Shown here: one piece after another, positions 8,058-48,980 of the stretch
Layout of the letters: each line of letters begins with the position of its first letter
Numbering within the stretch: the first letter of the stretch is position 1
Source: an uncultured Bacteroidales bacterium
Lineage (GTDB): Bacteria; Bacteroidota; Bacteroidia; Bacteroidales; FEN-979
Length of the DNA: 62,298 bases
Reading direction: 5' to 3'
Assembly (NCBI GenBank): GCA_903925275.1
Contig: CAIYES010000164.1
Location: forward strand, 1 to 62,298
Position numbers and translations under genes: made by a program
The notes under the pieces: model-generated
What the model was told of the DNA's origin: nothing
Seen by the model: only the letters and a program-made list of their open reading frames with translations
Databases searched by the model: none

Positions 8058-9416
8058 ATGAAAAAATCAGCATTGATTATCGCAATCATCAGCCTTGCTG
8101 CCGTTGCCTGTACAACACAAAAACAGGCAACTTCCACTGTCAGCGATGATGTTTACTATTCCTCCAAAAGAAGTGAACAACCGGTTTCCAATACCCCCAA
8201 ACCGCAAACCACAACTGCCCAGGTCATCACAACTCCCGACACATTGAAGGTTCAAAAATCAAATTCATCTTCATTTGCAGATGATTACAACGATTATTCC
8301 TATTCTGGCAGGATCAGCCGATTCAGCAATAAAGATACCACCAAAGGATATTTTGATGAGTCTTTTGCTGACGGATCTTCAAATTCCAGCGAAGGAGGCA
8401 GCAATCCGAATGTGTCTATTTCCTTTGGATTGGGTACAGGCTACGGTGGGTTCTATAACTCCCCTTCGTACTTTGGCATGGGTTGGGGTTACCCATATTC
8501 GAGTTGGGGATGGGATTATGGGTGGGGTTTTCCCTATTCCGGCTGGGGATATAACTATGGTTGGGGTTACCCCTATTATGGATGGTATAATCCATGGTAC
8601 AGCCCATGCTGTTATTGTTACGGATACAATGACTGGAATAATGGCGGATATCCTTATTATAATTCCAATACCTATTATGGTTCAAGAAATTCCACTTACC
8701 GGACTGATGGAGGAAGAAGTACAATGAATTCCAGAAATTCTTCGAACCCTGTCAATGGCAACGTTATTCAGAACGACCGGTCGCGAGTCACACCCAATTA
8801 TTCCAGAAACACCGCCAAACCTTCAACACCAGTTGTTCCGGCAAACCAGGAAAAATATCGCTATACAAGGCCGGCAAACAACCAACAAACGATTTACCAG
8901 AGAAGTACCGGACGGAATCAGGTTCAAAATCAAAGTACAACGCAGCGTCAACCACCAACACCACGATACGTCAGACCGGAAAATGTAACCCCTGCACAGC
9001 GTTCAGGTTCTGCACAAAGTTATTCTTCACCGGTTTACAGACAACCCAAATCCAGTCAGGAATATCTTACGCCAAGGTCACAAAACCCTGGCACTACCAG
9101 GGCGTCGAATCAAAACAGTGGTATCAGGAGTAATTCTACCACTACAGGGTCTGGTACCCGTCAATATACACCACCGTCATCAAACAGAACTTACACGACA
9201 CCAACCAGATCGAGCTCATCGGGCAATTCGACCCCTTCACGCACTAATTCAACCTACTCTGCACCATCCCGTTCGGGAAACAGTGGATCTTATTCTGCTC
9301 CTTCTAATTCAAATGGAGGAGGAAGCTATTCAGCACCAGCGAGATCGGGTGGAAACAGCGGAAGTGCACCATCCGGAGGTAGCGGTAACAGCGGAGGTGG
9401 CGGGAGACGCAGATAA
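8058..9416 (+). CDS. Low-complexity lipoprotein with a W/Y/G-rich (YxWGxW-like) core and a long S/T/N/R/P-rich tail
   Basis: Lipoprotein signal (LAAVAC). Core reads GWGYPYSSWGWDYGWGFPYSGWGYNYGWGYPYYGW. The C-terminal ~250 aa are almost entirely S/T/N/P/R/G/Q and end in GGGGRRR. Coding status is supported mainly by ORF length and the signal peptide. Confidence 0.6.
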   Translation: MKKSALIIAIISLAAVACTTQKQATSTVSDDVYYSSKRSEQPVSNTPKPQTTTAQVITTPDTLKVQKSNSSSFADDYNDYSYSGRISRFSNKDTTKGYFDESFADGSSNSSEGGSNPNVSISFGLGTGYGGFYNSPSYFGMGWGYPYSSWGWDYGWGFPYSGWGYNYGWGYPYYGWYNPWYSPCCYCYGYNDWNNGGYPYYNSNTYYGSRNSTYRTDGGRSTMNSRNSSNPVNGNVIQNDRSRVTPNYSRNTAKPSTPVVPANQEKYRYTRPANNQQTIYQRSTGRNQVQNQSTTQRQPPTPRYVRPENVTPAQRSGSAQSYSSPVYRQPKSSQEYLTPRSQNPGTTRASNQNSGIRSNSTTTGSGTRQYTPPSSNRTYTTPTRSSSSGNSTPSRTNSTYSAPSRSGNSGSYSAPSNSNGGGSYSAPARSGGNSGSAPSGGSGNSGGGGRRR

Positions 9417-22960: not shown

Positions 22961-23008
22961 AAATAGCGAAATAGCGAGGTAGCGAAATAGCGAAATAGCG
23001 AAATAGCG
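22961..23008. repeat. Tandem octamer array (AAATAGCG)x6, one unit variant AGGTAGCG
   Basis: Read directly from the sequence. It fills most of the 66-bp spacer between the permease stop (23024) and the thyA ATG (22957). Confidence 0.95.
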
Positions 23009-23023
23009 AAATAAAAAAATTAG

Positions 23024-27523: not shown

Positions 27524-27558
27524 TGACAAATGACGAATGACAAATGACAAGTGACAAA
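27524..27558. repeat. Tandem heptamer array (TGACAAA)x5 with variants TGACGAA and TGACAAG
   Basis: Read directly from the sequence. It begins 3 nt after the hppA terminator T tract. Confidence 0.9.
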
Positions 27559-27631
27559 TTTTACAAATAAAAAAGTTTAAGGCAACCTTTGGGGGGAGTT
27601 GTGTTATCTTTATGCAGGATAATGAATTCAT

Positions 27632-28216
27632 GTGGAGGAAGCACTGATAAAGAAAGCTATTGCCCGGGATATTAGCGCCATTGAAGCGTTGTATGACCAG
27701 TATGCACCAACTTTACTAAGCGTTTGTTTCCGATATTGCGGCAACCGGGATGATGCTGAAGACATACTTCATGATGGTTTTATCAAGATAATACAGAATA
27801 TTCATACATTCAGAATTCGTTCCGGAGCAACCCTGGAAGCATGGATGAGGCGGATCATGGTCAATACCGCCCTGAATTTTTTACGGACCCGGTCGAAAGA
27901 GAAAAACTTCGTCGATATCAATCCAATTCTTGATACAATTGATATTCACGATGAGGAGGTTTCCGACCCTGAGGAAATCTATCTTCAGGTGGACCGGGAA
28001 AAGATATTGGAACTTATCTGTGATCTGCCTGCAGGCTACAGGACGGTATTCAACCTTTACGTTTTTGAACAATACGGGCATAAGGAGATTGCAGAACTCC
28101 TCGGATGCTCCGAAAATACATCCAAGTCGCAGCTTTCAAAAGCCCGTGGCTTGCTGAGAAAAAAAATAAACAAACTGGTCAATATCAAAACAACACCAGC
28201 CTATGAAAAAGTATAA
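27632..28216 (+). CDS. ECF-type RNA polymerase sigma-70 factor
   Basis: Region 2 (DAEDILHDGFIKI, EAWMRRIMVNTALNFLR) and region 4 (YRTVFNLYVFEQYGHKEIAELLGCSENTSKSQLSKAR). The start is a GTG at 27632. Its end overlaps the next gene by 14 nt. Confidence 0.88.
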   Translation: MEEALIKKAIARDISAIEALYDQYAPTLLSVCFRYCGNRDDAEDILHDGFIKIIQNIHTFRIRSGATLEAWMRRIMVNTALNFLRTRSKEKNFVDINPILDTIDIHDEEVSDPEEIYLQVDREKILELICDLPAGYRTVFNLYVFEQYGHKEIAELLGCSENTSKSQLSKARGLLRKKINKLVNIKTTPAYEKV

Positions 28217-29612
28217 TCATCCATCCGACGAATTCTTCAGGGAGGCGCTAAAGGATCATCGGATGGAGCCTTCAGATGCAGCCAGGAAGGCCTTCCTGAA
28301 AGATGTCTCAGCGCTTCCCGCAGTATCTAAGAAGGGGAGAACAGGGTTAATCGTTTTGTCAGCAGCTATTGCATTGGTTGGCATGGGAATCATTCTCTGG
28401 TTCGCAACAGAAAAGAAATCGTCTGTTTCCTCCGCAAACGATATCAAATATACTGCACAACAATCGGTAAGGGCTGAAAATTTTCAGCCCAAACAACCAC
28501 AACAGGTAGGGGTTGAAAATATTCAATCCCAACAACCACCACAACAGGTAGGGGTTGAAAATATTCAATCCCACCAACAACCAAAAAAGGTAGGGGCTGA
28601 AAATATTCAACCCAAACAACAACAACAACAACAACAACAACAATCAGTAAGGGCTGAAAATTTTCAGCCCCAACGACAACCACAATCGGGGATGATTAAA
28701 TCTCCGGTTCTTACAAGTGAAGCAGAAACAACCGCCTTGACCGCAATTAACAATCAGGTTGCGATTATTTCTGAACCGCCTGCCAAATCAATTGATGACA
28801 TTTCAGTCAATCCTTCGGTGACAAACTCCGATACAACCGTACATATTAAAAAGCCAGATTCACCAATACCACCTGTTTCCGGGGCAAGAGAAACACCTCC
28901 GCCTACCTACAGAGAAACCAAAAAAATGACGCCTTTCATAGGGGTTTATTACACGCCGGAATGGATGTTCAACACACTGGAGGGAACAAAATTCGTCAAC
29001 AACTTCGGACTTGAAGGAACTTTCCATTTCGGCAGGTTCTCCATTCGGACAGGAGCCGGTTTTTCCATTACCAAAGGCACCAATGAACTGATTGTGGCGT
29101 ACAATGATTTTCTGGGCTCCTATAATAAATTAGACTCCATGAAATTTACATGGAACAATCCTGCACAGCAATATGTCCCGAAATTATACATGAGCAACCA
29201 GGATGTATGGGATAGTTTGATGAAAGTTGACTATGCAAGAGTAGTAAAAAGATATACCTATCTGCAGATTCCCATGATCATGGGGTATGATTTCGTTCAA
29301 TCTGACAAAATTTCGGTTGGTGTACGTGTAGGACCTGTTTTGTCGGTACTGCTGGCGACAAAACAATTATCGGCTGCGTATGATCCGGGCAATAAAAGGG
29401 TTGTCAGTATAAACGATATTGCACCCGAACAGGTCAGCCTCAACTGGCAGGCGATGGCCGGACTCAACACATCTATTCGTGTGACAAAAGCGTTGCAGTT
29501 TGAAGCAGAACCCTCAATCAGGTATTATTTTAACTCAGTTTATGAAAAACCAGTGCCTTCATGGAAGCCATGGTCGATCAGCATTCGCCTCGCAATGATG
29601 TTGTATTTTTAA
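28203..29612 (+). CDS. Anti-sigma-like membrane protein with an internal repeat region and a C-terminal outer-membrane beta-barrel-like domain
   Basis: Translationally coupled to the ECF sigma gene. It has a short cytoplasmic N-terminus, one TM helix (LIVLSAAIALVGMGIILWF), a Q/P-rich repeat region, and then beta-strand-rich sequence ending in an aromatic residue (MMLYF). Confidence 0.6.
   Translation: MKKYNHPSDEFFREALKDHRMEPSDAARKAFLKDVSALPAVSKKGRTGLIVLSAAIALVGMGIILWFATEKKSSVSSANDIKYTAQQSVRAENFQPKQPQQVGVENIQSQQPPQQVGVENIQSHQQPKKVGAENIQPKQQQQQQQQQSVRAENFQPQRQPQSGMIKSPVLTSEAETTALTAINNQVAIISEPPAKSIDDISVNPSVTNSDTTVHIKKPDSPIPPVSGARETPPPTYRETKKMTPFIGVYYTPEWMFNTLEGTKFVNNFGLEGTFHFGRFSIRTGAGFSITKGTNELIVAYNDFLGSYNKLDSMKFTWNNPAQQYVPKLYMSNQDVWDSLMKVDYARVVKRYTYLQIPMIMGYDFVQSDKISVGVRVGPVLSVLLATKQLSAAYDPGNKRVVSINDIAPEQVSLNWQAMAGLNTSIRVTKALQFEAEPSIRYYFNSVYEKPVPSWKPWSISIRLAMMLYF
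28467..28671. repeat. Five in-frame copies of a 20-24 bp palindrome (GGGCTGAAAATTTTCAGCCC and variants) plus (CAA)9
   Basis: Copies at 28467-28490, 28506-28530, 28548-28572, 28590-28613 and 28647-28671. The first and last contain a perfect 20-bp palindrome. Copy-to-copy distances are 39, 42, 42 and 57 bp. (CAA)9 lies at 28617-28643. Confidence 0.9.
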
Positions 29613-32166: not shown

Positions 32167-32174
32167 TACTTTTG
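32167..32174 (+). promoter_or_regulatory. -7 box TActTTTG for gcvP
   Basis: TAnnTTTG match 33 nt upstream of the ATG at 32208. Confidence 0.5.
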
Positions 32175-32207
32175 CGACAGCTTCAAAAATCCTCAAAAAT
32201 TCCTCTT

Positions 32208-35066
32208 ATGATCAACAACAACTTTGCAAGAAGACACAACGGACCATTCGGCAGTGAAATCAATAAGATGCTTGAGAAGGTCGGCGTTACCTCTTTGGAT
32301 CAGCTTATTGACCAAACAGTTCCATCTTCCATCCGGATGAAAACACCGCTTGACCTCCCCATTGGGATGAATGAATATCAGTACCTCAATCATATTAAAT
32401 CAATCGGCAATAAAAACAAACTTTTCAAGACCTTCATCGGGTTGGGTTACTATAATACCATTGTTCCTGCCGTCATTCTGCGCAACATACTCGAAAACCC
32501 GGGATGGTACACCGCCTATACTCCTTATCAAGCCGAAATATCACAGGGAAGACTTGAGGCATTGCTGAATTTTCAAACCATGGTATGCGATCTTACTTCG
32601 ATGCCCATTGCGAATGCATCATTGCTCGACGAGGGCACCGCTGCGTCAGAAGCCATGATCATGCTCTTCAACAGCCGCTCCCGCGACGCTGTAAAAAGAG
32701 GCGCCAACCATTTCTTTGTTTCCGAGAACCTCTTCCCGCAATCGATCGATGTTATCCGTACACGCGCCATTCCTCTTGGCATCGACCTTATCATCGGGAA
32801 GCAGGATGAATTCAATTTTAACGATATGGTTTTCGGTTGTGTGATCCAGTATCCGAACCAGCACGGGGCAGTGTGCGATTATGCCACGATTGTCGGAAAG
32901 GCGCATCAGGCAGGTGCCATGGTTGCTGTTGCGGCTGACTTGCTGAGCCTCACCCTGCTTACCCCTCCGGGAGAATGGGGCGCCGATATCGTTTTCGGAT
33001 CGACCCAGCGATTCGGCATCCCGATGGGATATGGCGGGCCGCATGCAGCCTACTTTGCCACACGTGATGAGTACAAGCGTCAGATGCCAGGGCGCATCAT
33101 CGGTGTTTCGGTTGATGCCAACGGCAACCGGGCACTGCGTATGGCGCTTCAAACCCGCGAACAGCATATCAAACGTGAAAAAGCAACTTCCAACATCTGT
33201 ACATCCCAGGTATTGCTTGCCGTTATGGCCGGTATGTATGCCGTTTATCATGGTCCAAAAGGATTGCGTCAGATCGCCCGCCACATCAATATTCTCACCG
33301 GGGTTTTGTCCAAAGAAGCACAGAAATACGGATATCAGCAACTAAACGATTACTTCTTTGATACTGTAATGATCCGGATCCCGGAAGGAGTATCAATGGA
33401 GGCTATCCGCAACGCTGCATTAAATAGCCAGATGAACCTTCGCTACATTGACGACAGGCATATCGGCGTAAGCATTGACGAAACAACTTCCTTGTCGGAT
33501 ATCAACGCCCTCGTGGAGATATTTGCCAAAGCCAATGGTAAAACCTATGTTGAGTTTGTCTGCATCCCCGCGGAATGTGAACTCATCAACACGCTTCCCC
33601 AGCAGTTAACACGCACCTCAGCATACCTCACGCATAAGGTTTTCAACAGCTATCACTCTGAAACCGAGATGATGCGCTATATCAAAAAACTGGAGATCAA
33701 GGATCTTGCGCTTAACCGTTCAATGATCCCATTGGGTTCCTGCACCATGAAACTGAATGCCGCATCGGAACTGTTCGCGCTGAGCTATCCCGAATTTGGC
33801 GGAGTTCACCCTTTTGTTCCAAAAGATCAGGCTGAAGGATATCAGTTCCTGATTGAAGAACTTGCGAAAGACCTGGCAACCATTACCGGCTTCGATTCGG
33901 TTTCCTTTATGCCCAACTCGGGCGCTGCCGGTGAATATGCAGGGTTGATGGTAATCCGGCAATACCATATCGCAAATGGCCAGGGGCATCGCGATGTCTG
34001 CATCATCCCCTCATCGGCCCATGGTACCAATCCGGCCAGCGCTGCGATGGCCGGGATGAAGGTGGTGGTTGTAAAATGTGATGACAAAGGAAATATCGAC
34101 GTAAATGACCTACGTGAAAAGGCAGTTCAGTATAAAGATACTTTGTCAGCATTAATGGTTACCTATCCTTCGACCCATGGAGTTTTCGAAGAGGAGATTC
34201 TTGACATCATCCGCATTATTCATGAAAACGGCGGACAGGTTTACATGGACGGTGCCAACATGAATGCCCAGGTCGGACTGACCAATCCTGGCATCATCAA
34301 GGCTGATGTTTGTCACCTGAACCTGCATAAAACTTTTGCCATTCCTCATGGTGGCGGTGGCCCCGGCGAGGGTCCGATTGCTGTTGCAAAACACCTTTCA
34401 CCCTATCTGCCGAAACATGTGTGCGTTGAAACCGGTGGCCAAAACGGCATTACAGCCGTTGCTTCCGCACCTTATGGCAGTGCCCTTATCCTCACCATCT
34501 CCTACGCCTATATCAAGTTACTTGGTGGTGCCGGACTGACCGAAGCCACTAAAATGGCCATCCTGAATGCAAATTATCTCAAATCATGCCTGGAGCCCTA
34601 CTACCCGATCCTCTATTCAGGAAAGAATGGTCGTTGTGCACATGAGATGATCGTTGATTGCAATGCAATCAGCCGGCAAACCGGCATAGGAGCCATCGAT
34701 ATTGCCAAACGGTTGATGGATTATGGCTTTCACGCGCCTACCGTTGCTTTTCCGGTTCACGGCACCCTGATGGTCGAACCTACTGAGAGCGAACCCTATT
34801 CGGAGTTGAACCGATTCCTTGAAGCGATGATCGCCATCAAGGGAGAAATTGAAGAAATTGCATCAGGTAAAGCCGATAAAGTGATAAACGTGATCATGAA
34901 AGCGCCACACACCGCTCAGATGGTTTCGGCCGATGAATGGAACCTCCCCTATTCGCGCCAGAAAGCAGCATTTCCGGTTGATTCGTTAAAAGAGGACAAA
35001 TACTGGCCTACGGTAACCCGTATCGACGATGCATTTGGTGACCGGAATCTTGCGTGCACAGCGTAG
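32208..35066 (+). CDS. gcvP: Glycine dehydrogenase (decarboxylating), single-chain P protein
   Basis: 952 aa from MINNNFARRHNGP. Motifs NPGWYTAYTPYQAEISQGRLE, HLNLHKTFAIPHGGGGPG (PLP Lys) and MVEPTESE. Confidence 0.96.
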   Translation: MINNNFARRHNGPFGSEINKMLEKVGVTSLDQLIDQTVPSSIRMKTPLDLPIGMNEYQYLNHIKSIGNKNKLFKTFIGLGYYNTIVPAVILRNILENPGWYTAYTPYQAEISQGRLEALLNFQTMVCDLTSMPIANASLLDEGTAASEAMIMLFNSRSRDAVKRGANHFFVSENLFPQSIDVIRTRAIPLGIDLIIGKQDEFNFNDMVFGCVIQYPNQHGAVCDYATIVGKAHQAGAMVAVAADLLSLTLLTPPGEWGADIVFGSTQRFGIPMGYGGPHAAYFATRDEYKRQMPGRIIGVSVDANGNRALRMALQTREQHIKREKATSNICTSQVLLAVMAGMYAVYHGPKGLRQIARHINILTGVLSKEAQKYGYQQLNDYFFDTVMIRIPEGVSMEAIRNAALNSQMNLRYIDDRHIGVSIDETTSLSDINALVEIFAKANGKTYVEFVCIPAECELINTLPQQLTRTSAYLTHKVFNSYHSETEMMRYIKKLEIKDLALNRSMIPLGSCTMKLNAASELFALSYPEFGGVHPFVPKDQAEGYQFLIEELAKDLATITGFDSVSFMPNSGAAGEYAGLMVIRQYHIANGQGHRDVCIIPSSAHGTNPASAAMAGMKVVVVKCDDKGNIDVNDLREKAVQYKDTLSALMVTYPSTHGVFEEEILDIIRIIHENGGQVYMDGANMNAQVGLTNPGIIKADVCHLNLHKTFAIPHGGGGPGEGPIAVAKHLSPYLPKHVCVETGGQNGITAVASAPYGSALILTISYAYIKLLGGAGLTEATKMAILNANYLKSCLEPYYPILYSGKNGRCAHEMIVDCNAISRQTGIGAIDIAKRLMDYGFHAPTVAFPVHGTLMVEPTESEPYSELNRFLEAMIAIKGEIEEIASGKADKVINVIMKAPHTAQMVSADEWNLPYSRQKAAFPVDSLKEDKYWPTVTRIDDAFGDRNLACTA

Positions 35067-35112
35067 GGAAATGGTGAAATGGTGAAATGGTGAAATGGTG
35101 AAATGGTGAAAC
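35067..35112. repeat. Tandem octamer array (GGTGAAAT), about 6 units
   Basis: Starts at the first base after the gcvP TAG. Four perfect internal units are flanked by two degenerate end units. Confidence 0.92.
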
Positions 35113-39491: not shown

Positions 39492-39619
39492 ACTTGAAGC
39501 TACTCCGAAAACTCTTTTTACCGCTAAGACGCTAAACTTATATGCTTGAATTTTAAATATTTGCGTCTTAGTGGCTTGGTGGTTAAATTTGTTTTTGACT
39601 TTTTGGAGCAGGCTCAATA
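39492..39619. repeat. ~127-bp imperfect palindromic intergenic element, copy A
   Basis: Terminal inverted repeat TTGAAGCTACTCCGAAAA / TTTTGGAGCAGGCTCAAT. Internal hairpin CTAAGACGC...GCGTCTTAG. Conserved blocks are shared with 44243-44370. Confidence 0.8.
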
Positions 39620-39645: not shown

Positions 39646-41022
39646 TTATAATTCTTTTAATAAATAATCTTTAAAATCCTGATAATTATTGGGCAAAGTT
39701 CCATAATTCTCAGGTTTATCATCGAGCCCTTCCAGGCTTTTGGGTAACGGAGGTATTATGCCAAGAAGTCGCTGGATCTCTTCAGAGAATTTTGCAGGAT
39801 GTGCCGTTTCAAGCGACACGCACAATTGGTCATCACGGTCGAGTGCGGGATTTGCTTTAAGGTATTCCATCAATCCGGCCCAACCTACTGCACCATGAGG
39901 TTCCAACACCAGTTTATAGGTTTGATATGCCTTGCAGATGGTATCTTTGGTCTGCTGATCTGAAATACTGACCGAAAAAAGCTCCTTCCGCAGCAATTCC
40001 ATATCTGCCGGCTGATGGATGATACCACGCTCATCCATCATGCCGCCATTGAGGGCGACCACCCTGGCCAGGTTGCTGGGGTGACCTACGTTCATGGCGC
40101 TGGAAATACAATTCCGTGAAGGCTCAATTTTATCATATTTCCCCGAATAAAGGAAGTTCGGAAATTCATCATTCCCGTTGGTTGCAATAACCAGTTTCCG
40201 AACCGGCAATCCCATCTTCATGGCAAGAATCCCGCCCATCATATCGCCGAAATTTCCTGATGGGACTGAAAATATGATTTTTTCAGGATGGTTGTCCATT
40301 CTCAGCATCGAGAATGCATAGAAATAATAGACAATCTGGGGAATCAAACGGCCAATGTTGATCGAGTTGGCTGATGATAAACCCAGGGTTTCAAGTTCAG
40401 GATCGGCAAATGCCTGTTTGACCAATGACTGGCAATCATCGAATTTGGCGTCCAGAGCCAGAACCCGGACGTTTTTACCCAATGTGGTCATCTGTTTTCG
40501 CTGCCTTTCGGTAACCTCCGCCCTCGGAAAAAGCACCACAAGTTCAATGTTATCCAATCCATAAAAGGCATTTGCCACCGCGCTTCCGGTATCGCCGGAA
40601 GTAGCAGTAAGAATAAGGAGTTTCTTATTTTCCTGCTTAAGGTAATACTGCATCAAACGGCCCATCATCCGGGCGGCAAAATCCTTGAATGAAGCAGTAG
40701 GTCCCTGGTCGAGGCGCATAACAAACTTTCGTGCGCAAACGTGCTGAATCGGGATTTCAAAGTCATAGGCATCTATAACGATCCGGCGCAACTCATCTTC
40801 CTCAATTTCACCGGCCAGGTAATGTCGTGCCACTTCGAATGCGATTTCATCATACCTTTTCCCTGTAAATCCCAAAATCGTTTCAACAGACAGTAACGGA
40901 ACAGATTCCGGCAAGTATAACCCTCTGTCAGGCGCCTGCCCTTTGAGCAATGCCTGACTGAAGGTAACTTTTTCTGAATTCAGATTGGTTGAGTAATAGC
41001 GCAATGAATGTTCCATAACCAT
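39646..41022 (-). CDS. thrC: Threonine synthase
   Basis: GPTASFKDFAARMMG (PLP Lys), ATSGDTGSAV and PSGNFGDMMGG motifs. The start could be 41022 or 41016. Confidence 0.92.
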   Translation of the reverse strand: MVMEHSLRYYSTNLNSEKVTFSQALLKGQAPDRGLYLPESVPLLSVETILGFTGKRYDEIAFEVARHYLAGEIEEDELRRIVIDAYDFEIPIQHVCARKFVMRLDQGPTASFKDFAARMMGRLMQYYLKQENKKLLILTATSGDTGSAVANAFYGLDNIELVVLFPRAEVTERQRKQMTTLGKNVRVLALDAKFDDCQSLVKQAFADPELETLGLSSANSINIGRLIPQIVYYFYAFSMLRMDNHPEKIIFSVPSGNFGDMMGGILAMKMGLPVRKLVIATNGNDEFPNFLYSGKYDKIEPSRNCISSAMNVGHPSNLARVVALNGGMMDERGIIHQPADMELLRKELFSVSISDQQTKDTICKAYQTYKLVLEPHGAVGWAGLMEYLKANPALDRDDQLCVSLETAHPAKFSEEIQRLLGIIPPLPKSLEGLDDKPENYGTLPNNYQDFKDYLLKEL

Positions 41023-41111
41023 TCAGGAATTAAGTAGTTGACGGCTTGTAAGAAAAACTACAAACTCTTAAAGATTTTATGAATCAGCACCACGAGGCAA
41101 CAATAAGTATG

Positions 41112-42347
41112 TTAATAAGCCTGCGGGAACTTGCCTGATATGAAATCTTCTTTCACTTTTACTTCACTGTCTATCTTGTCGAAAGCCTGTGCCATATCGC
41201 CGATCAGATCTTTTTCATCCTCGATGCCGATGGATAACCTTATCATTGAAGGTGTAATGCCGGCTTTGCGCATTTCAACCTCTCCCATGGCCGAATGCGT
41301 TGTGGAAGCCGGGTGTGTAACGATCGACTTGCAGGTTCCGAGATGGGTGGCATGCGTCAGGATCATCAAGGCATCGATAAACCTTGTTGCCTGTTCATAG
41401 GTCCCATTCAGTTCAAATGACATCAGCGAACCGCACCCTTTCATCTGAGGCATTATCATTTTATGGTACGGATTGGATTCAAGTCCGGGATAATTTACAA
41501 AATTCACCTTGGGATGTGCCTCCAGATAAGTTGCAATGGCCATTGCATTCTGACAATGCCGTTCCATTCGCAGCGACAAGGTTTCAAGGCCATTGATGCT
41601 GAGCCAGGCATTGAACGGCGCCATGGCCGGTCCAAGGTACCGTATCCCGTTTTGCCGGATTCCTTCAACGAGCGCCTTTGACCCACAAATGATACCTCCA
41701 AGGCTGGTTGCATTTCCGCAGATATATTTGGTAGTGGAGTGAACGATGATATCGGCTCCCAGCAGTATGGGTTGCTGTAAAGCAGGTGTAGCAATGGTGT
41801 TATCGACAACCAACGGCAGGTTCTTTGATTTCGCAAGGGCAGACAGGGCCCGAATATCGGCAATGAATAAGGAAGGATTGCTGGGACTCTCAACAAACAG
41901 GAACTTTGTTTTTGGGGTAATTGCAGCAGCCCAGGCATCGATTGATTCGGGGCTGGTTACCCAGTTGACTTTGGCCCCCATTTTTGGCAGACCTACATTA
42001 AACAGACCGAATGTTCCACCGTAAACACGGTTTGAAGAGACCACTTCATCGCCTGCTGAAAGCAGATGATGGGTCAGTAAAAAAATGGCCGACATGCCGG
42101 ATGCTGCAGCAATAGCACCTTCGGTGTTTTCCAGGGCAGCCATGCGGTTCTCAAACACCTGAACCGTCGGGTTATCCCATCGGCCATAAGTAAATCCGGG
42201 CTTTTCCCCGGTGAAAATGGCAGCGGCCTCCTGTGCATCGAGATAGGGATAGGCTACCGATTGATAAATGGGTACCGTCATAGAATCAGGTTGGAAATCT
42301 GACTTCCCGGCATGAATAGCTTTGGTATTAAATCCGCGGTTTGGCAT
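41112..42347 (-). CDS. O-acetylhomoserine/O-succinylhomoserine sulfhydrylase family PLP enzyme (MetY/MetZ-like)
   Basis: TKAIHAG, YGRWDNPT and HSTTKYICG (PLP Lys) motifs. It lies in a cluster with thrC. Confidence 0.8.
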   Translation of the reverse strand: MPNRGFNTKAIHAGKSDFQPDSMTVPIYQSVAYPYLDAQEAAAIFTGEKPGFTYGRWDNPTVQVFENRMAALENTEGAIAAASGMSAIFLLTHHLLSAGDEVVSSNRVYGGTFGLFNVGLPKMGAKVNWVTSPESIDAWAAAITPKTKFLFVESPSNPSLFIADIRALSALAKSKNLPLVVDNTIATPALQQPILLGADIIVHSTTKYICGNATSLGGIICGSKALVEGIRQNGIRYLGPAMAPFNAWLSINGLETLSLRMERHCQNAMAIATYLEAHPKVNFVNYPGLESNPYHKMIMPQMKGCGSLMSFELNGTYEQATRFIDALMILTHATHLGTCKSIVTHPASTTHSAMGEVEMRKAGITPSMIRLSIGIEDEKDLIGDMAQAFDKIDSEVKVKEDFISGKFPQAY

Positions 42348-42685
42348 AGGCTCCTCCTTTGATTTTTTTTGGGTTTACTTTTTTAAAAATGACAGATATT
42401 CTAAAATTAAACAAACATAAAAAATAAATCAATTGATACCTGACAGAAAACATGGCACATTCAATAATATTTTAATCAAAACACTGGTATTCGTAAATGC
42501 TTTTAGAAATCAGCAGGTTATTTAACAACCTGAGGCTTGTTCTTCCATGATCCTGCATTTTTTTTAACCAAATAGTCACAACCTGTCATATGGGCCAATG
42601 GAAAAAAGGGTTGCATAAAATTCAAATGAGTCGAAATTAATAATCATTACTGTACAAGGCAGGATTACAGCCCATGAGATTTTAG

Positions 42686-42693
42686 TATCTTTG
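42686..42693 (+). promoter_or_regulatory. -7 box TAtcTTTG for lpdA
   Basis: TAnnTTTG match 23 nt upstream of the ATG at 42716. Confidence 0.5.
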
Positions 42694-42715
42694 CGAATTC
42701 CAAAAATCAGAAAAA

Positions 42716-44104
42716 ATGAATTATGATATTATCGTGATAGGGAGTGGTCCGGGAGGATATGTTGCTGCAATCAGGGCAGCTCAGCTTGGAATGAAAGTCG
42801 GCGTGGTCGAACGTGCTGAATTGGGTGGAATTTGCCTGAATTGGGGTTGCATTCCAACAAAGGCATTGCTTAAGAGCGCCTCTGTATTTCAATATTTGCA
42901 GCATGCCGCTGAATATGGAATTTCGGCTGGGGAAGCCAAAGCCGATTTCCCGGCTATTATCAAGCGCAGCCGTGATGTTGCCGACCAGATGAGCAAGGGG
43001 ATCCAATTCCTTTTAAAGAAAAATAAGGTTGAACACATCCAGGGTTTCGGAAAAGTGAAACCCGGAAAAATAGTGGAGGTGACCGATAGTTCAGGGACAA
43101 CAACAGAATATCCGGCAAATCATATCATCATCGCTACCGGTGCACGTTCGCGGGAGCTTACAAACCTCCCACAGGATGGCAAAAAGATCATCGGTTACCG
43201 TGAGGCCATGACCCTGCCGGAACAACCCAAATCAATGGTGGTGGTCGGTTCAGGCGCTATTGGCTCCGAGTTTGCATGGTTTTATCACTCAATCGGCACT
43301 AAAGTAACACTTGTTGAAGTATTGCCGAATGTTGTTCCTGTGGAGGATGAAGAAGTTTCAAAAGTGTTGGAACGTTCGTTCAAAAAGGCCGGCATGAAAG
43401 TAATGACAGGCGTTTCGGTTGAATCGGTTGATACCAGCGGGGAAGGTTGTAGCGTTGTCATACAGACAAAAAAAGGTCAGGAGATCATTGCATGCGATGT
43501 CGTTTTATCGGCAGTGGGCATTGCCACAAACATCGAAGGGATCGGATTGGAAGATGTCGGGATTGTAACTGAACGCGGAAAAGTGGTTGTTGATGATTTT
43601 TATAAGACCAACGTTGATGGCTACTATGCCATTGGCGATATTGTACGCGGGCCAGCGCTCGCGCACGTTGCTTCACACGAGGGTATTTTATGTGTGGAGA
43701 AAATCGCCGGGAAACAGGTTGAACCACTTGATTATGGCAATATACCCGGATGTACTTACACGCATCCGGAGATTGCATCGGTTGGGATGACTGAAAAAGC
43801 TGCCAGAGAAGCCGGCTATGAAATACTGGTGGGAAAATTTCCGTTTACTGCATCGGGAAAAGCAACTGCCTCAGGGGCACGTGATGGGTTTATCAAAGTG
43901 GTTTTCGATGCAAAATATGGCGAATGGCTTGGCGCCCATATGATTGGCGACAATGTTACCGAGCTGATCGCCGAAGTGGTCGTGGCAAGGAAATTGGAAA
44001 CCACCGGCAAAGAGATCATCGAATCGGTTCACCCCCACCCGACTATGTCGGAAGCGATTATGGAGGCGGTGGCCCAGGCCTATGGGGAGTGCATTCACCT
44101 GTAG
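42716..44104 (+). CDS. lpdA: Dihydrolipoyl dehydrogenase
   Basis: GSGPGGYVAAIRAAQLG FAD motif, redox-active GGICLNWGCIPTK, a second GxGxxG, and C-terminal HPHPTMSE. Confidence 0.95.
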   Translation: MNYDIIVIGSGPGGYVAAIRAAQLGMKVGVVERAELGGICLNWGCIPTKALLKSASVFQYLQHAAEYGISAGEAKADFPAIIKRSRDVADQMSKGIQFLLKKNKVEHIQGFGKVKPGKIVEVTDSSGTTTEYPANHIIIATGARSRELTNLPQDGKKIIGYREAMTLPEQPKSMVVVGSGAIGSEFAWFYHSIGTKVTLVEVLPNVVPVEDEEVSKVLERSFKKAGMKVMTGVSVESVDTSGEGCSVVIQTKKGQEIIACDVVLSAVGIATNIEGIGLEDVGIVTERGKVVVDDFYKTNVDGYYAIGDIVRGPALAHVASHEGILCVEKIAGKQVEPLDYGNIPGCTYTHPEIASVGMTEKAAREAGYEILVGKFPFTASGKATASGARDGFIKVVFDAKYGEWLGAHMIGDNVTELIAEVVVARKLETTGKEIIESVHPHPTMSEAIMEAVAQAYGECIHL

Positions 44105-44212
44105 CAATGCAAGCAATGCAGACAATGCAAGCAATGCAGACAATTCAAGCAATGCAGACAATGCAGACAATGCAAGCAGTGCAGACAATGCAAGCAATGC
44201 AAGGAATGCAGA
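44105..44212. repeat. Tandem nonamer array, 12 units (CAATGCAAG / CAATGCAGA)
   Basis: Counted unit by unit. It starts at the first base after the lpdA TAG. Confidence 0.97.
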
Positions 44213-44242
44213 AAAAATGAAGTCAAAATAAAGAATATATAA

Positions 44243-44370
44243 CTGAGCCTACTTTGAAAACACTTTTTTACCGCGAAGGCACGAAGAGGTTGAAAATAAA
44301 ATATTGAATTTAAAATACTTGCGTAACGTCGCGGTTTAAATATGTTTTTAACTTCTCTGAGCAGGCTCAC
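44243..44370. repeat. ~127-bp imperfect palindromic intergenic element, copy B
   Basis: It shares with 39492-39619 the blocks GA(A/G)(G/C)CTACT..GAAAAC, CTTTTTACCGC, TTGAATTT(T)AAATA(T/C)TTGCGT, TTAAAT.TGTTTTT.ACT and GAGCAGGCTCA. It has its own internal stem, ACCGCGA...TCGCGGT. Confidence 0.8.
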
Positions 44371-44390
44371 AATTCAAGTTAACTGATATG

Positions 44391-44480
44391 TCTGCATTGT
44401 CTGCATTGCTTGCATTGTCTGCATTGTCTGCATTGTCTGCATTATCTGCATTGTCTGCATTGTTTGCATTGTTTGCATTA
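44391..44480. repeat. Tandem nonamer array, 10 units (TCTGCATTG / CTTGCATTG), reverse complement of the 44105-44212 array
   Basis: Counted unit by unit. It ends 13 nt before the rfbC ATG. Confidence 0.97.
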
Positions 44481-44493
44481 AAAATAAAAAGTT

Positions 44494-45036
44494 ATGGAAA
44501 TCATTCGCACACCCTTAGAGGGATTATTGATCATCAAGCCAGATGTGTTTGAGGATGAGCGCGGTTATTTTTTTGAATCGTTCAGCCATGAGAAATTCTT
44601 CAAAGTCGGACTTGATCTTACATTCGTTCAGGACAATGAATCGAGGTCGAAAAAAAATGTCCTTCGCGGTCTTCATTTCCAGGCTCCGCCATTTGCCCAG
44701 GGAAAATTAGTGCGGGTAATGCGAGGCTCGGTGCTGGATGTTGCTGTTGATATCCGGAATGGCTCCCCTACTTATGGCAAATGGGAGTCGATCGTACTTA
44801 CCGGGAAAAATAAATGGATGTATTGGATTCCTGCCGGATTCGCACATGGTTTTGCAACCCTGGAGGATGATACCATTTTTTTCTACAAATGTACCAACGT
44901 TTACAACAAAGCTTCGGAAGGCAGCATCAACCTGAATGATCCGGATCTGAACATTGACTGGGGAATAAAGGATCCGGTGATTTCCGAAAAAGATAAGGTT
45001 TCTCCTGTGTTCCAGGGGTTTGTAAGTCCTTTTTGA
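44494..45036 (+). CDS. rfbC: dTDP-4-dehydrorhamnose 3,5-epimerase
   Basis: DERGYFFESF, LRGLHFQ, QGKLVRV and AHGF motifs. 180 aa. Confidence 0.94.
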   Translation: MEIIRTPLEGLLIIKPDVFEDERGYFFESFSHEKFFKVGLDLTFVQDNESRSKKNVLRGLHFQAPPFAQGKLVRVMRGSVLDVAVDIRNGSPTYGKWESIVLTGKNKWMYWIPAGFAHGFATLEDDTIFFYKCTNVYNKASEGSINLNDPDLNIDWGIKDPVISEKDKVSPVFQGFVSPF

Positions 45037-45132
45037 TTTGGTAAACAGGTGAGGATGGACAGGCGGATTGATTTTTTAAAAATATACCGCCGTGGCTTTG
45101 TGACTTTGTAAATCATTGACTTATTGAAAAAT

Positions 45133-46134
45133 ATGCAAAAAAAACTATATTATACCTCAGGCGTCCTTTGCTTGTTATTGGTATGTTTTATCTCCATCTA
45201 TGCTATCGTGGAGGTGAAAAACCAGAACAACGAATACAACGCTCTTTTTAACCGGCATATGAAGATATTTTCGCCGGAGGTTCCGGCAACAGCTAATTTT
45301 GCCGGAGAAGTCGTTCCAATGGAATTGTATTACGTCAGAGAGGCCTTTGATCGTGAGATCATGGCAAGCACCTTTATGCATTCTTCGTCAATTATGATGT
45401 TCAAGCGTGCCAACCGATGGTTTCCTGTGATTGAACCCATTCTGAAAAAAAATGGGATCCCTGACGATTTCAAGTTCCTGGCACTCGCTGAAAGCAACCT
45501 GGTTAATGTGGTATCGCCAGCCGGCGCTGAGGGTTACTGGCAATTTATCAAGGCAACAGGCATGAAATACGGACTTGAAATCAATGACAACGTTGATGAA
45601 AGATATAACATGGAGAAAGCCACACAAGCTGCCTGTGATTACTTCAAAGATGCGTATAAAGACTTTAACAGCTGGACGCTCGTTGCCGCCTCCTATAACC
45701 GGGGAATAGATGGTGTTGATAGAGCGCTGGAAAATCAAAATGTCAGTAATTACTACGATTTGTACCTCAATGAGGAGCCTTCCCGCTACGTTTTCCGCAT
45801 CATCGCCATCAAGGAGGTTTACAACCATCCTGTCCGTTATGGATTTTACCTGCGTCAACGGGATTTCTATCCGCAACTGAACTGCCGTTCTATTGTGGTT
45901 GACAGCAGCATCGTCAATTTGCCTGCTTTTGCCAAACAAATGTCAATCAATTACAGGATCCTGCGTGAATTGAATCCATGGATCAAAAATTACAGTTTGC
46001 CTAACAAATCGAAAAAAACATACATCTTCCAGTTTCCAAAGGAGGGTGCATTGAATTTTGAAACACTTATGAAAAAGGTTCCTTCAGGCGAAACGTTTTT
46101 CCATGATACACTGAAATTTAACGAGGTTCACTAA
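45133..46134 (+). CDS. Lytic transglycosylase (SLT domain) protein, membrane anchored
   Basis: N-terminal TM helix. SLT motif LALAESNLVNVVSPAGAEGYWQF (catalytic Glu) and AAYNRG. Confidence 0.82.
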   Translation: MQKKLYYTSGVLCLLLVCFISIYAIVEVKNQNNEYNALFNRHMKIFSPEVPATANFAGEVVPMELYYVREAFDREIMASTFMHSSSIMMFKRANRWFPVIEPILKKNGIPDDFKFLALAESNLVNVVSPAGAEGYWQFIKATGMKYGLEINDNVDERYNMEKATQAACDYFKDAYKDFNSWTLVAASYNRGIDGVDRALENQNVSNYYDLYLNEEPSRYVFRIIAIKEVYNHPVRYGFYLRQRDFYPQLNCRSIVVDSSIVNLPAFAKQMSINYRILRELNPWIKNYSLPNKSKKTYIFQFPKEGALNFETLMKKVPSGETFFHDTLKFNEVH

Positions 46135-46157
46135 AGTTACTGATTTTCGCTGTTACC

Positions 46158-48980
46158 GTGGAAGAAAATTTGGAAGTATTCGGTGCCAGGGTTCACAACC
46201 TGAAAAATATTGACCTGATCATTCCCCGCAAAAAGTTTGTTGTGTTTACAGGCTTAAGCGGAAGTGGCAAGTCATCGCTTGCATTCGACACTATTTACGC
46301 CGAAGGCCAGCGACGGTACATGGAAACCTTTTCAGCTTATGCCAGGCAGTTCATCGGCAATCTGGAAAGGCCTGATGTGGATAAAATCAACGGACTAAGC
46401 CCGGTCATTTCCATTGAGCAGAAATCAACCAACCGGAACCCCCGATCGACCGTTGGGACGATCACCGAAATCTACGACTTCATGCGCCTGCTTTTTGCCC
46501 GGGCTGCCGATGCTTACTCATATGTTACCGGAGAGCAGATGGTCAGGTACAGTGAGCAGCAGATTGTCGAACTGATCCTTATACAATACACCGGGAAAGA
46601 TATCCTGGTGCTGGCACCAGTGGTAAAAGGACGTAAAGGGCATTACCGCGAACTGTTTGAGCAGATCCGCAAGCAAGGTTTTCTCAATGTTCGCATCGAT
46701 GGCGAGGTTAAGGAAATTTCGCATGGATTGCAACTTGACCGGTATAAAATCCATGATATTGAAATCGTTATCGACCAGATCAACATCCATCCGGAATCAA
46801 AAAAAAGGCTGGCAGGCTCTGTCAACCTGGCCCTGCGACATGGGAAGGATGTGTTGATGATCCTCGACAGGCACTCCGATACCGCCCGCCATTTCAGCCG
46901 CCTGCTGATGTGCCCTACTTCAGGAATCTCCTACAACGAGCCTGAACCGAACTCGTTTTCATTCAATTCTCCTTACGGGGCTTGTGCAAAATGCAATGGA
47001 CTTGGAACAATTTCCGAAATTGATATCAACAAAATCATTCCTGACCGTTCAAAAAGTATTAAAAAAGGAGGGATTGTTCCAATCGGGGAATATAAAAATT
47101 CCTGGATTTTCAAACAGATAGAAGCCATCGGTGAAAAATACGGATTTAACATTACCACACCCATTGATGAGATTCCTGAAAATGCCATCAATGTAATTTT
47201 AAACGGATCCGATGAAGTCTTCAGGGTAAAGAATGAATACCTCGGCGTATCATCGAGCTATTCACTGAATTTTGAAGGGATCGTAAGTTTCATAAACTCC
47301 CAGCACGCCGAAGCAGCCCCTGCCGGCATCATGAAGTGGGTGAGTAGTTTTATGAATAAAATGCCATGTCCGGAATGTGGAGGTGCGCGATTGAAAAAAG
47401 AATCTCTTTTTTTTAAACTCGGCGGAAAAAACATATCAGAATTGGCCAATACCGACCTTGTAAATCTGGCCATCTGGTTTGACCAACTCAATGACCAACT
47501 TGATGAACGAAAACGGACCATTGCCTTTGAGATCATCCGGGAAATCAGAAGCCGGATTCAATTCCTGCTCGATGTCGGTATCGGCTATCTGACGTTGAAC
47601 CGCACAGCACGAAGCCTTTCGGGTGGCGAAAGTCAGCGGATCCGATTGGCTACCCAGATCGGTTCACAATTGGTCGGAGTGCTGTATATCCTGGATGAAC
47701 CCAGTATAGGCCTCCACCAGCATGACAACCTAAGGCTCATTCACGCGTTGAAAAGTCTGCGTGATACCGGAAACTCTGTCATCGTGGTTGAGCATGACCA
47801 GGAAACCATCATGGCTGCCGATCATGTGATCGACATCGGGCCGGGAGCCGGGATCCATGGCGGAAGGATCGTTGCGCAGGGTACGCCTGCCGAAATCATG
47901 AACAGTGAGCAACTTACCGGGCTTTATCTGAGCGGAAAGCGAAAAATCAGGATTCCGACCGAACGCAGGAAAGGCAATGGCAAATTTCTTAAACTGACAG
48001 GTGCTACAGGCAATAACTTAAAAAACATTGAGCTGAGACTTCCGTTGGGAAAACTGATCTGCATCACAGGGCTCTCGGGAAGCGGGAAATCATCGCTTAT
48101 CAATGAGACCCTTTATCCGATTCTCAGTCAGCACTTTTTCCGGTCGGAACAAAAACCGTTGCCGTACGAAACGATCGAAGGAATTAAAAACATCGACAAG
48201 GTCATCGAAATTGACCAGTCGCCCATTGGACGTACTCCCCGATCCAATCCTGCCACCTACACGAAAATGTTCGACGACATCAGAAAACTCTATGCTGAAT
48301 TGCCGGAATCAAAGATCAGAGGCTATAAACCCGGTCGGTTTTCTTTCAATGTGAAAGGAGGACGATGTGAAACCTGCAAAGGGGCTGGGTTGCGTGTGAT
48401 CGAGATGAATTTTCTGCCCGATGTATATGTTCCATGCGAAACCTGTCAGGGACACCGGTACAACCGTGAAACCCTGGAAGTCCGGTACAAAGGAAAATCC
48501 ATCAACGACGTACTCAATATGACCATTGAACAGGCTGTGGATTTCTTTGAGAACATTCCGTTTATCGTCCATAAAATCAATACGATTAACGAGGTCGGCC
48601 TTGGTTACGTCACCCTGGGTCAGCAATCGACCACCCTTTCAGGGGGCGAAGCGCAACGTGTCAAACTTGCAACGGAACTATCAAAAACAGACACTGGAAA
48701 CACCCTTTACATCCTCGACGAACCAACCACCGGATTGCACTTTGAAGATGTAAAGGTACTACTTTGCGTGCTCAACAAGCTGGTTGCAAAGGGGAATACA
48801 GTGTTAGTGATCGAACACAACATGGAAGTGATAAAGGTTTCAGACCATATCATCGACATGGGGCCGGAAGGGGGTGAACGTGGCGGTCATATCCTTGCCG
48901 AAGGCACACCGGAGGAGGTTGCGCTGCATCCATCAGGTTTCACGGCTCGTTACCTTAAAGAAATCCTCGGAATTACGTGA
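46158..48980 (+). CDS. uvrA: Excinuclease ABC subunit A
   Basis: Two ABC modules (GLSGSGKSSL twice, LSGGE twice), zinc-finger Cys pairs, 940 aa. The start is a GTG. Confidence 0.97.
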   Translation: MEENLEVFGARVHNLKNIDLIIPRKKFVVFTGLSGSGKSSLAFDTIYAEGQRRYMETFSAYARQFIGNLERPDVDKINGLSPVISIEQKSTNRNPRSTVGTITEIYDFMRLLFARAADAYSYVTGEQMVRYSEQQIVELILIQYTGKDILVLAPVVKGRKGHYRELFEQIRKQGFLNVRIDGEVKEISHGLQLDRYKIHDIEIVIDQINIHPESKKRLAGSVNLALRHGKDVLMILDRHSDTARHFSRLLMCPTSGISYNEPEPNSFSFNSPYGACAKCNGLGTISEIDINKIIPDRSKSIKKGGIVPIGEYKNSWIFKQIEAIGEKYGFNITTPIDEIPENAINVILNGSDEVFRVKNEYLGVSSSYSLNFEGIVSFINSQHAEAAPAGIMKWVSSFMNKMPCPECGGARLKKESLFFKLGGKNISELANTDLVNLAIWFDQLNDQLDERKRTIAFEIIREIRSRIQFLLDVGIGYLTLNRTARSLSGGESQRIRLATQIGSQLVGVLYILDEPSIGLHQHDNLRLIHALKSLRDTGNSVIVVEHDQETIMAADHVIDIGPGAGIHGGRIVAQGTPAEIMNSEQLTGLYLSGKRKIRIPTERRKGNGKFLKLTGATGNNLKNIELRLPLGKLICITGLSGSGKSSLINETLYPILSQHFFRSEQKPLPYETIEGIKNIDKVIEIDQSPIGRTPRSNPATYTKMFDDIRKLYAELPESKIRGYKPGRFSFNVKGGRCETCKGAGLRVIEMNFLPDVYVPCETCQGHRYNRETLEVRYKGKSINDVLNMTIEQAVDFFENIPFIVHKINTINEVGLGYVTLGQQSTTLSGGEAQRVKLATELSKTDTGNTLYILDEPTTGLHFEDVKVLLCVLNKLVAKGNTVLVIEHNMEVIKVSDHIIDMGPEGGERGGHILAEGTPEEVALHPSGFTARYLKEILGIT

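Follow-up and report, generated by a model that had tools for sequence, protein, structure and literature searches.

MITEs such as ERIC/IRU (127 bp), Correia/NEMIS, RUP, and Nezha are small, non-coding, intergenic elements that carry terminal inverted repeats and are flanked by target duplications, occur as many dispersed copies, and fold as one long hairpin. Inside operons, palindromic MITEs can lead to RNase III cutting or to altered mRNA decay (PMC10969869). A different kind of intergenic repeat is represented by VNTRs with units of 5 to 11 nt, which run head to tail without spacers, lie only between genes, are missing from the equivalent spacer of close relatives, and have heptamers as their commonest class. 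The STRR heptamers of cyanobacteria are simple-sequence repeats of the same general class. VNTR arrays, including those built of TAACTGA, frequently start where a coding region stops or finish immediately ahead of a start codon. Long simple-sequence repeats of this class are known but occur sporadically, and intergenic heptamer arrays have been reported in some Bacteroidetes; MacGregor's survey contains essentially direct sets only (PMC4679880).

Here, we analyze the spacer between lpdA and rfbC in a 62,298-nt stretch of DNA from an uncultured Bacteroidales bacterium, which we refer to as the window. This spacer is probably best described as a nested, locus-specific composite, in which these two known kinds of bacterial repeat DNA are combined in an unusual, heritable arrangement. 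The element at its core belongs to a family that shares the MITE features listed above but differs from ERIC- and Correia-type elements in its TGAGYCYRCTCCGAAAA ends, its 4-bp ANNT-type duplication, and its inner arms of three octamers, and the copy in the window is further set apart by the inverted arrays that bracket it. The arrays of this lineage, with their head-to-tail 7–9-nt units, share the VNTR features; at this locus, they differ from the described cases in having another unit and in that two arrays of the same unit are inverted around a MITE. Long inverted arms of short tandem repeats, with a variable number of units and a central segment, are also found in the FB transposons of Drosophila, but FB elements transpose as a unit and have many copies, whereas the composite in the window is limited to one locus and has one arm that predates the rest. 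Within the Bacteroidales, tandem repeats and a MITE occur together in BrickBuilt of Porphyromonas gingivalis, which contains a 23-nt minisatellite, is always intergenic, and varies in repeat number (PMC4596501). The BrickBuilt minisatellite is internal to the element, enclosed by its inverted ends, and is mobilized along with it (PMC4596501), whereas the arrays in the window are external to the element, were present at the locus before it, and are mutually inverted.

Results

Anatomy of the lpdA–rfbC spacer

The 389-nt spacer is filled by a block of repeats that extends from the lpdA stop codon to 13 nt short of the rfbC ATG (Table 1). By direct reading, it consists of 12 nonamers on the left and 10 reverse-complement nonamers on the right, separated by 178 nt, with the first base of the left array falling immediately after the lpdA stop TAG (44102–44104). 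TRF placed the left 9-nt array at 44103–44210 with 12.0 copies (44105–44212 when read with an 18-nt unit) and the right 9-nt array at approximately 44389–44480 with 10.1 copies; both run head to tail without spacers, with a period of 9 and 0% indels. When up to three mismatches are allowed, the window contains 22 matches to a 16-mer of the unit, where 1.2 would be expected, and 21 of the 22 fall within the two arrays. The genes at the locus are adh_short, HAD, ThrC, Cys_Met_Meta_PP, lpdA, rfbC, SLT, UvrA, LOG, RsfS, and FtsH.

Much of this layout had been described in a first-pass annotation made from the sequence alone. The two inverted nonamer arrays, the 178-bp core, and their placement between the lpdA stop and the rfbC ATG proved exact when compared with the sequence, TRF, and the ORF calls, and the imperfect palindrome of ~127 bp noted within the core is real and has a paralog elsewhere in the window. 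The same annotation held that the locus is neither a CRISPR array nor a canonical terminator. In agreement with this, the nonamer units are contiguous, with no unique spacers between repeats, and a scan of the spacer for intrinsic terminators returned 0 sites, there being no short GC-rich stem with a U tract and the stem being followed by an A-rich tail. Nor did the three ORFs that cross the spacer match any Pfam family, as anticipated from their lack of a coding signature.

Table 1. Features of the lpdA–rfbC locus, numbered from the first letter of the window
Feature	Coordinates	Strand	Basis
lpdA (dihydrolipoyl dehydrogenase), upstream gene	42716..44104	+	ORF list; Pfam Pyr_redox_2 E = 1e-68, Pyr_redox_dim E = 1e-36
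Left array, 12 nonamers CAATGCAAG/CAATGCAGA, unit CAATGCAGR, ancestral VNTR	44105..44212	+	TRF, sequence, orthologous arrays
Left linker, 31 nt, A-rich	44213..44243	.	Sequence; 88% identity to L135 linker
Core, 126-bp imperfect palindrome, somewhat degenerate MITE copy	44244..44369	+	Paralog, family alignment
Right linker, 21 nt: one direct nonamer CAATTCAAG (44370–44378), then TTAACTGATATG	44370..44390	.	Sequence
Right array, 10 nonamers TCTGCATTG/CTTGCATTG/TTTGCATTG, derived inverted VNTR copy	44391..44480	-	TRF, inverted-repeat pairs
A-rich 13-nt leader (AAAAATAAAAAGT T), unpaired, before rfbC start	44481..44493	+	Sequence, folds
rfbC (dTDP-4-dehydrorhamnose 3,5-epimerase), downstream gene	44494..45036	+	Pfam dTDP_sugar_isom E = 4e-71
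Second MITE copy, without flanking arrays, between two minus-strand genes	39495..39616	+	nhmmer E = 1e-36; alignment

The core is a copy of a MITE family

To define the family to which the core belongs, we scanned one genome per species (GTDB) with a 20-base pattern taken from the 3′ end of the core. The scan yielded 50 loci, about 40 of which lie in Bacteroidales, Bacteroidia, or Lentimicrobium MAGs; the remaining matches are chance occurrences inside genes of unrelated phyla. Two MAGs contain ~11 to 12 matches each and three others 4 to 5 each, and the 62-kb window itself has two copies. A long-read assembly is among the MAGs richest in matches.

The family consensus runs from TGAGTCCACTCCGAAAAC to GTTTTCGGAGCAGGCTCA, and its two termini are formed by the inverted repeat TGAGYCYRCTCCGAAAA. 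Of 15 aligned copies, 14 to 15 retain the terminal pairs, and the core copy in the window has two mismatches per terminal end. Both the terminal and the inner arms pair, with compensatory changes in five pairs, and the inner arms are built of three octamers per side (GACACCAA ACCACAAA AACACAAA and TTGGTGTC CTGGTGAC TTGGTGTC). Family members range in size from 47 to 243 bp, and the 126-bp core in the window is non-coding.

Among 34 distinct two-ended copies (37 table rows, three elements having been recorded on both strands), 17 are abutted by identical 4-bp direct repeats, mostly of the form ANNT, as compared with ~2 expected even when the ANNT bias is allowed for. Because these duplications occur far above chance, the family must have transposed. 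Near-identical copies are also present at separate loci of one MAG (L008, L029, and L048). The core copy in the window has no target duplication (TAAC versus CAAT), and the second copy has a possible ATAC duplication if its left end is shifted by 1 nt.

By definition, then, the core family is a MITE, save for an autonomous partner insertion sequence, of which none was found in about 880 kb of loci, where no pair of ends lies more than 250 bp apart. The term "MITE-like" in the first-pass annotation was therefore apt for the core, since the family has many copies, terminal inverted repeats, and target-site duplications. The family appears to be undescribed and to reside in uncultured Bacteroidales and Lentimicrobium-like bacteria. 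A search of Rfam gave no match at the gathering score for the whole window, and only chance-level matches for the two core copies at E values up to 10; the plasmid database had no match to either the whole spacer or a consensus-like MITE; and a full-text literature search for the terminal sequences returned unrelated primer matches only.

The nonamer arrays are not part of the element

The arrangement of tandem repeats as long inverted arms resembles that of eukaryotic foldback elements, and the inner arms of the MITE family are themselves composed of three octamers per side, both of which would suit a mobile element of the foldback type, with the arrays as variable-length terminal inverted repeats of one transposable unit. 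We aligned the left flank of each family copy to the reverse complement of its right flank. The window locus scores 129 in this comparison, and all other copies score 37 or less, including about 10 from the long-read MAG. Inverted flanking arrays accompany none of the other ~34 family copies, although several copies are embedded in direct arrays, which consist of TTGGAAT/C at L043 and of AAAGTAAA at L007 and L027. Because no other copy has inverted arrays, these are not a trait of the family, and the composite is not a foldback transposon.

The history of the left array leads in the same direction. A metagenome scan with LpdA returned 80 loci, of which 20 keep the gene order lpdA–rfbC–SLT, and in 19 of these the lpdA–rfbC spacer is 3 to 180 nt long. 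In L055 and L137, whose LpdA is about 91% identical to that of the window, the spacer is 37 nt long and contains two direct CAATGCAGR units with neither a core nor an inverted array; in L055 the layout is TAA-aat-CAATGCAGG-CAATGCAGG-tail. L056 (LpdA 86%) has about eight direct nonamers, the first of which overlaps the stop codon, and likewise has no core and no inverted array. Its spacer aligns equally well to the left arm of the window on the plus strand (score 105) and to the right arm on the minus strand (score 103). Other relatives have unrelated 7–8-nt arrays in the same spacer (L057, L066, L075, L076, and L101) or almost no spacer, and further outgroups at about 90% identity have spacers of 30 to 74 nt without the nonamer. 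A-rich tails resembling the leader in the window are present in L055 and L137, as well as in L135, described below.

These loci show that the left array is ancestral: a direct CAATGCAGR array after lpdA predates both the MITE and the inverted arm at this locus. The foldback element with VNTR arms that had been put forward as one interpretation is thus contradicted on two counts, by relatives without the element whose direct arrays are orthologous to the left array and by the ~34 other copies without inverted flanks. Since, in addition, the whole composite is seen at one locus only and is not bracketed by a target duplication, we regard a transposable unit that includes the arrays as highly improbable.

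The composite is inherited and varies in unit number

A protein search identified an LpdA 96% identical to that of the window on two contigs, L135 and L136, which come from other samples and another assembler. Both have the same order of parts as the window, in a spacer of 321 nt. In L135, the left array comprises about seven direct units, mostly TAATGCAGA. The MITE is decaying, with 72% identity to the core in the window and its right terminal repeat lost. The right linker of L135, TAATTCAAGCTAACTAAAATG, is 81% identical to its counterpart in the window and starts with one direct unit (TAATTCAAG); it is followed by about six inverted units and an A-rich tail. Two more contigs with the identical LpdA have, judging by gene coordinates, spacers of 312 nt, exactly one unit fewer than 321. 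A fifth contig with this LpdA stops 46 nt past lpdA.

The third codon positions of lpdA differ by 15% between the window and the L135 lineage. Across the relatives, the number of units is 2 (L055 and L137), about 8 (L056), 7 + 6 (L135 and L136), and 12 + 10 (the window). Exact-protein look-ups with lpdA and rfbC of the window returned only window-identical sequences. The finding of the same composite in the relative with 96% LpdA identity, together with the 9-nt difference between assemblies, indicates that the locus is real, heritable, and variable in unit number. The composite arose after the split from the 91% lineage and is inherited by at least two diverged lineages, and the arrays are shown to gain and lose 9-nt units. 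The arms had been called VNTRs in the first-pass annotation, a label that holds given the variation among relatives and the 321- and 312-nt spacers in different assemblies.

Inverted repeats are typical sites of mis-joins, and unitig-type assemblies are indeed interrupted within the arrays, which is to be expected where repeats exceed k in length, so that a chimeric fold-back or a collapsed repeat has to be considered. An identical 389-nt spacer is present, however, in other public assemblies of the window strain, an orthologous and diverged composite occurs in other samples processed with other assemblers, and each array would be shorter than a typical 150-nt read. An assembly chimera, named at the outset as the result that would undo the finding, is contradicted by the separate assemblies and the diverged relative, and we consider an artifact of this kind extremely unlikely.

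Origin of the inverted arm

The relatives show the starting point of the composite, a slippage-prone CAATGCAGR array abutting the lpdA stop, already present in the ancestor at a very short lpdA–rfbC junction. The 126-bp palindromic MITE lies in the middle of this spacer and presumably arrived before the inverted copy arose. The reverse-complement copy of the array on the far side was most likely produced by replication template switching, that is, by fold-back copying around a hairpin. Template switching can create and extend hairpins (PMC8794818, PMC13100816), and a reverse-complement copy of neighboring DNA beside a hairpin is its signature (PMC8794818, PMC13100816, PMC7202029). The locus resembles the described growth of quasipalindromes in that an inverted copy of the neighborhood stands beside a hairpin and in that the arms of such structures tend to homogenize (PMC8794818, PMC13100816, PMC7202029). 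It differs in scale, as the described events mostly involve a few to tens of bases and the putative event here would have copied about 90 nt of array.

The left and right linkers are not significantly complementary to one another (shuffle test, p about 0.13), a point against a simple one-step fold-back copy. The MITE is flanked by the motif TAACTGA, with one occurrence at 44240 and another at 44380, the TAAC(TGA) on the right lying 10 nt past the CAAT that abuts the element. This pattern would be accounted for just as well if the order were reversed, with the arrays inverted first and the MITE, together with 10 nt, inserted into their loop afterwards. The genomes compared have an LpdA that is either 96% or at most about 91% identical to that of the window. 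TAACTGA itself, the motif of the heptamer arrays surveyed in PMC4679880, is not enriched, with 7 matches against 5.4 expected.

Predicted fold and likely consequences for expression

The two arms are complementary over 87 nt at 90% or over 89 nt at 87%, and pairing is also possible in many registers offset by 9 nt. The predicted RNA fold of the spacer has a free energy of -181 kcal/mol (z = -15.8) and the predicted DNA fold one of -108 kcal/mol (z = -12.2), with a long outer stem around an inner hairpin. The register-degenerate stem enclosing a second hairpin that had been proposed from the sequence is thus borne out by the folds and the 9-nt-shifted pairing. The L135 composite is likewise predicted to fold strongly (-104 kcal/mol, z = -7.5).

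Because relatives have spacers that range from several bases to several tens of bases, lpdA and rfbC were probably co-transcribed, as a tight operon that the composite has since opened up. A transcript reading through from lpdA would carry a stem of ~90 bp, capable of slipping in register by 9 nt, around the MITE hairpin and ending 13 nt before the rfbC start. Such a stem would be a plausible site for RNase III or a block to exonucleases, and would uncouple rfbC from lpdA or damp its expression relative to lpdA. RNase III cuts Correia-containing transcripts, and ERIC elements affect mRNA decay (reviewed in PMC10969869); by analogy, the likeliest effect of the composite may be RNase III cleavage or altered mRNA stability caused by the long dsRNA stem. 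As DNA, the same structure would be expected to act as a hotspot for slippage and recombination. We consider the composite probably not to be a dedicated device.

A stronger reading is that the stem is kept by selection as a processing, insulating, or stabilizing element within the operon, with its length, and hence rfbC output, tuned in 9-nt steps. The composite has persisted in two lineages whose lpdA third positions are 15% apart, both of which keep a strong fold, and the A-rich leader ahead of the ATG remains untouched in every case. Unit variants are, moreover, partly common to both arms of one genome (the T-type in L135, and the C-type and AAG in the window), and the arm-to-arm unit distance within a genome, 1.3 to 1.4, does not exceed that between orthologous arms, 1.4 to 2.1; the statistics for this covariation of the arms are weak. 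The shared variants hint at either arm-to-arm exchange or compensatory selection. Complementarity would, however, be retained automatically for as long as both arrays share a consensus unit, most relatives do without the composite and have spacers of 3 to 50 nt, and the MITE inside the stem is decaying in L135, where identity has fallen to 72% and the right terminal repeat is gone. Selection for the stem thus seems to us unlikely, if by no means negligible. Were the stem to prove processed or tuned, it would represent a new kind of phase-variable post-transcriptional control. Independent of any such role, the locus is a clear natural example of a very long hairpin that is built stepwise from an array, a MITE, and an inverted copy, survives inside an operon, and changes in 9-nt steps.

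With a Bacteroidales host, inverted repeats around about 180 bp, and a sugar-nucleotide gene directly downstream, the spacer also recalls the invertons of Bacteroides capsule loci. In that case, recombination between the arms would flip the 178-nt core to control rfbC, and with arms 90 bp long this might not require a dedicated invertase. The Bacteroidetes -7 box TAnnTTTG is absent from both strands of 44050–44520, however, and hence from the spacer in either orientation. All assembled contigs of both lineages have the same orientation, no recombinase gene is found among the neighbors, and rfbC lies outside any polysaccharide locus, with SLT and uvrA coming next. Furthermore, inversion would leave so nearly palindromic a core largely as it was. 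Taken with these observations, an inverton is a very remote prospect. A scan for sigma-70 promoters gave one weak match, no more than in shuffled sequences. The insulator, processing-site, and protein-platform readings of the first-pass annotation thus gain no backing from signals of the promoter or terminator type.

Two other candidates were rejected. A replication origin or iteron array does not fit, as the GC skew does not switch at 44 kb and the nonamer bears no likeness to a DnaA box. Read-through translation of in-frame nonamers, which would add a QCK/QCR tail, was dropped because periods of 7 and 8 occur among other arrays of the lineage and because the longer LpdA homologs are extended at the N terminus (L138).

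Short arrays across the lineage

Arrays with 6–12-nt units, counted from 3.5 copies upward, reach a density of 8 per 100 kb in the window, as compared with 16 in the loci of the MITE-bearing MAGs and 3 among the wider LpdA relatives. Heptamers are the commonest class, accounting for 41 of 76 arrays. Identical heptamer pairs at unrelated loci or in different MAGs number 17, against 0.7 expected under uniform composition, a figure that ignores the A/T-rich composition of these genomes.

A role as binding sites has been proposed for TAACTGA arrays in Beggiatoaceae, cyanobacteria, and Bacteroidetes (PMC4679880), and the nonamers and other 7–9-nt arrays could similarly form a platform for a multimeric protein that binds single-stranded nucleic acid or DNA. 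The high frequency of arrays in the lineage, at 8 to 16 per 100 kb, and the recurrence of the same units across loci and MAGs would be in keeping with this proposal, save that the expectation of 0.7 for recurrence takes no account of A/T-rich composition. Orthologous spacers, on the other hand, have unrelated units or none, copy number is unconstrained, and no candidate protein was identified, all of which leaves a protein platform very unlikely in our estimation. A broader proposal would join this idea to the one on the stem: the arms would be kept complementary by selection or arm-to-arm conversion as a conserved dsRNA stem of the operon that sets rfbC and is adjustable in 9-nt steps, and the 7–9-nt arrays of the lineage would serve a nucleic-acid-binding protein as dispersed functional sites, as opposed to being debris left by slippage. 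We judge this combination to be quite improbable.

The analysis documents a high load of 7–9-nt intergenic arrays in the same lineage that carries the composite. Loci of this type break short-read assemblies, and MAGs of the group are consequently fragmented at exactly these sites.

A divergence step at the lpdA-rfbC repeat block

Across the span 40475-46666, the window and L135, the contig of a relative that carries the same composite of array, MITE, and inverted array, whose LpdA is 96% identical to that of the window, share ≈94% identity upstream of the lpdA-rfbC spacer (thrC to lpdA) and ≈98.5% identity downstream of it (rfbC, SLT, and the start of uvrA), so that divergence changes stepwise at the spacer itself. 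The comparison suggests a recombination boundary at or adjoining the repeat block.

The final codons of lpdA (44087-44104) read GAG TGC ATT CAC CTG TAG and are in partial register with the nonamer (A-TGCA). They include TGCATT, the complement of the core of the nonamer unit, and the 3' end of lpdA may have been the seed of the nonamer array.

Additional copies of the MITE family and their internal structure

The MITE family is represented in the window by a second copy, which has the stop codon of ThrC, a minus-strand gene, on one side and the beginning of a HAD-hydrolase gene on the other. This copy and the one at 44.2 kb are both in the + orientation, though the genes around the second copy sit on the opposite strand. 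The inner arms of the family comprise three octamers on each side. In related MAGs, the arms of many copies, including those at loci L007, L011, L014, L018, L022, L025, L030, and L035, among others, harbor additional short GC-rich palindromes, for example CCTGCCTGCCGCAGGCAGG, ATCCCGATAGCTATCGGGAT, and CCCGTACGTACGGG. In appearance, these nested palindromes resemble small mobile hairpins that form a second layer within the family.

Short-unit arrays and repeats within ORFs

Besides the arrays of the lpdA-rfbC spacer, three further intergenic short-unit arrays occur in the window, and units related to them (AATAGCG, AAATGAC, and AATGACG) are found again at other loci and in other MAGs. Intergenic tracts at loci of related MAGs string together a number of 6-8-nt arrays with differing units, one after another, and copy numbers reach 38; in the tracts of L020, L014, and L043, all array pairs of the same unit are in direct orientation. 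Repeats also lie inside window ORFs: every 42-nt unit of ORF 28203-29612 contains a small inverted repeat (GGGCTGAAAATATTCAGCCC), and an AAC x9.7 run follows these units.

Coordinates of repeat features in the window and at loci of related MAGs
Feature	Position	Strand	Context
Second MITE family copy	39495-39616	+	Without flanking arrays
AAATAGCG x7 array	22961-23020		Occupies all of the spacer that separates a pair of minus-strand genes
TGACAAA/TGACGAA x5 array	27524-27559		After hairpin, downstream of ORF 25043-27463
GAAATGGT x5.5 array	35068-35111		Begins with the base immediately following stop codon of ORF 32172-35066
Compound 6-8-nt array tracts	L020 1040-1763 and 3921-4501; L014 507-779; L043 1762-2589		
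42-nt unit x5	28453-28687		Within ORF 28203-29612
39-nt unit x2.5, 77% matches	8478-8577		Within ORF 8058-9416
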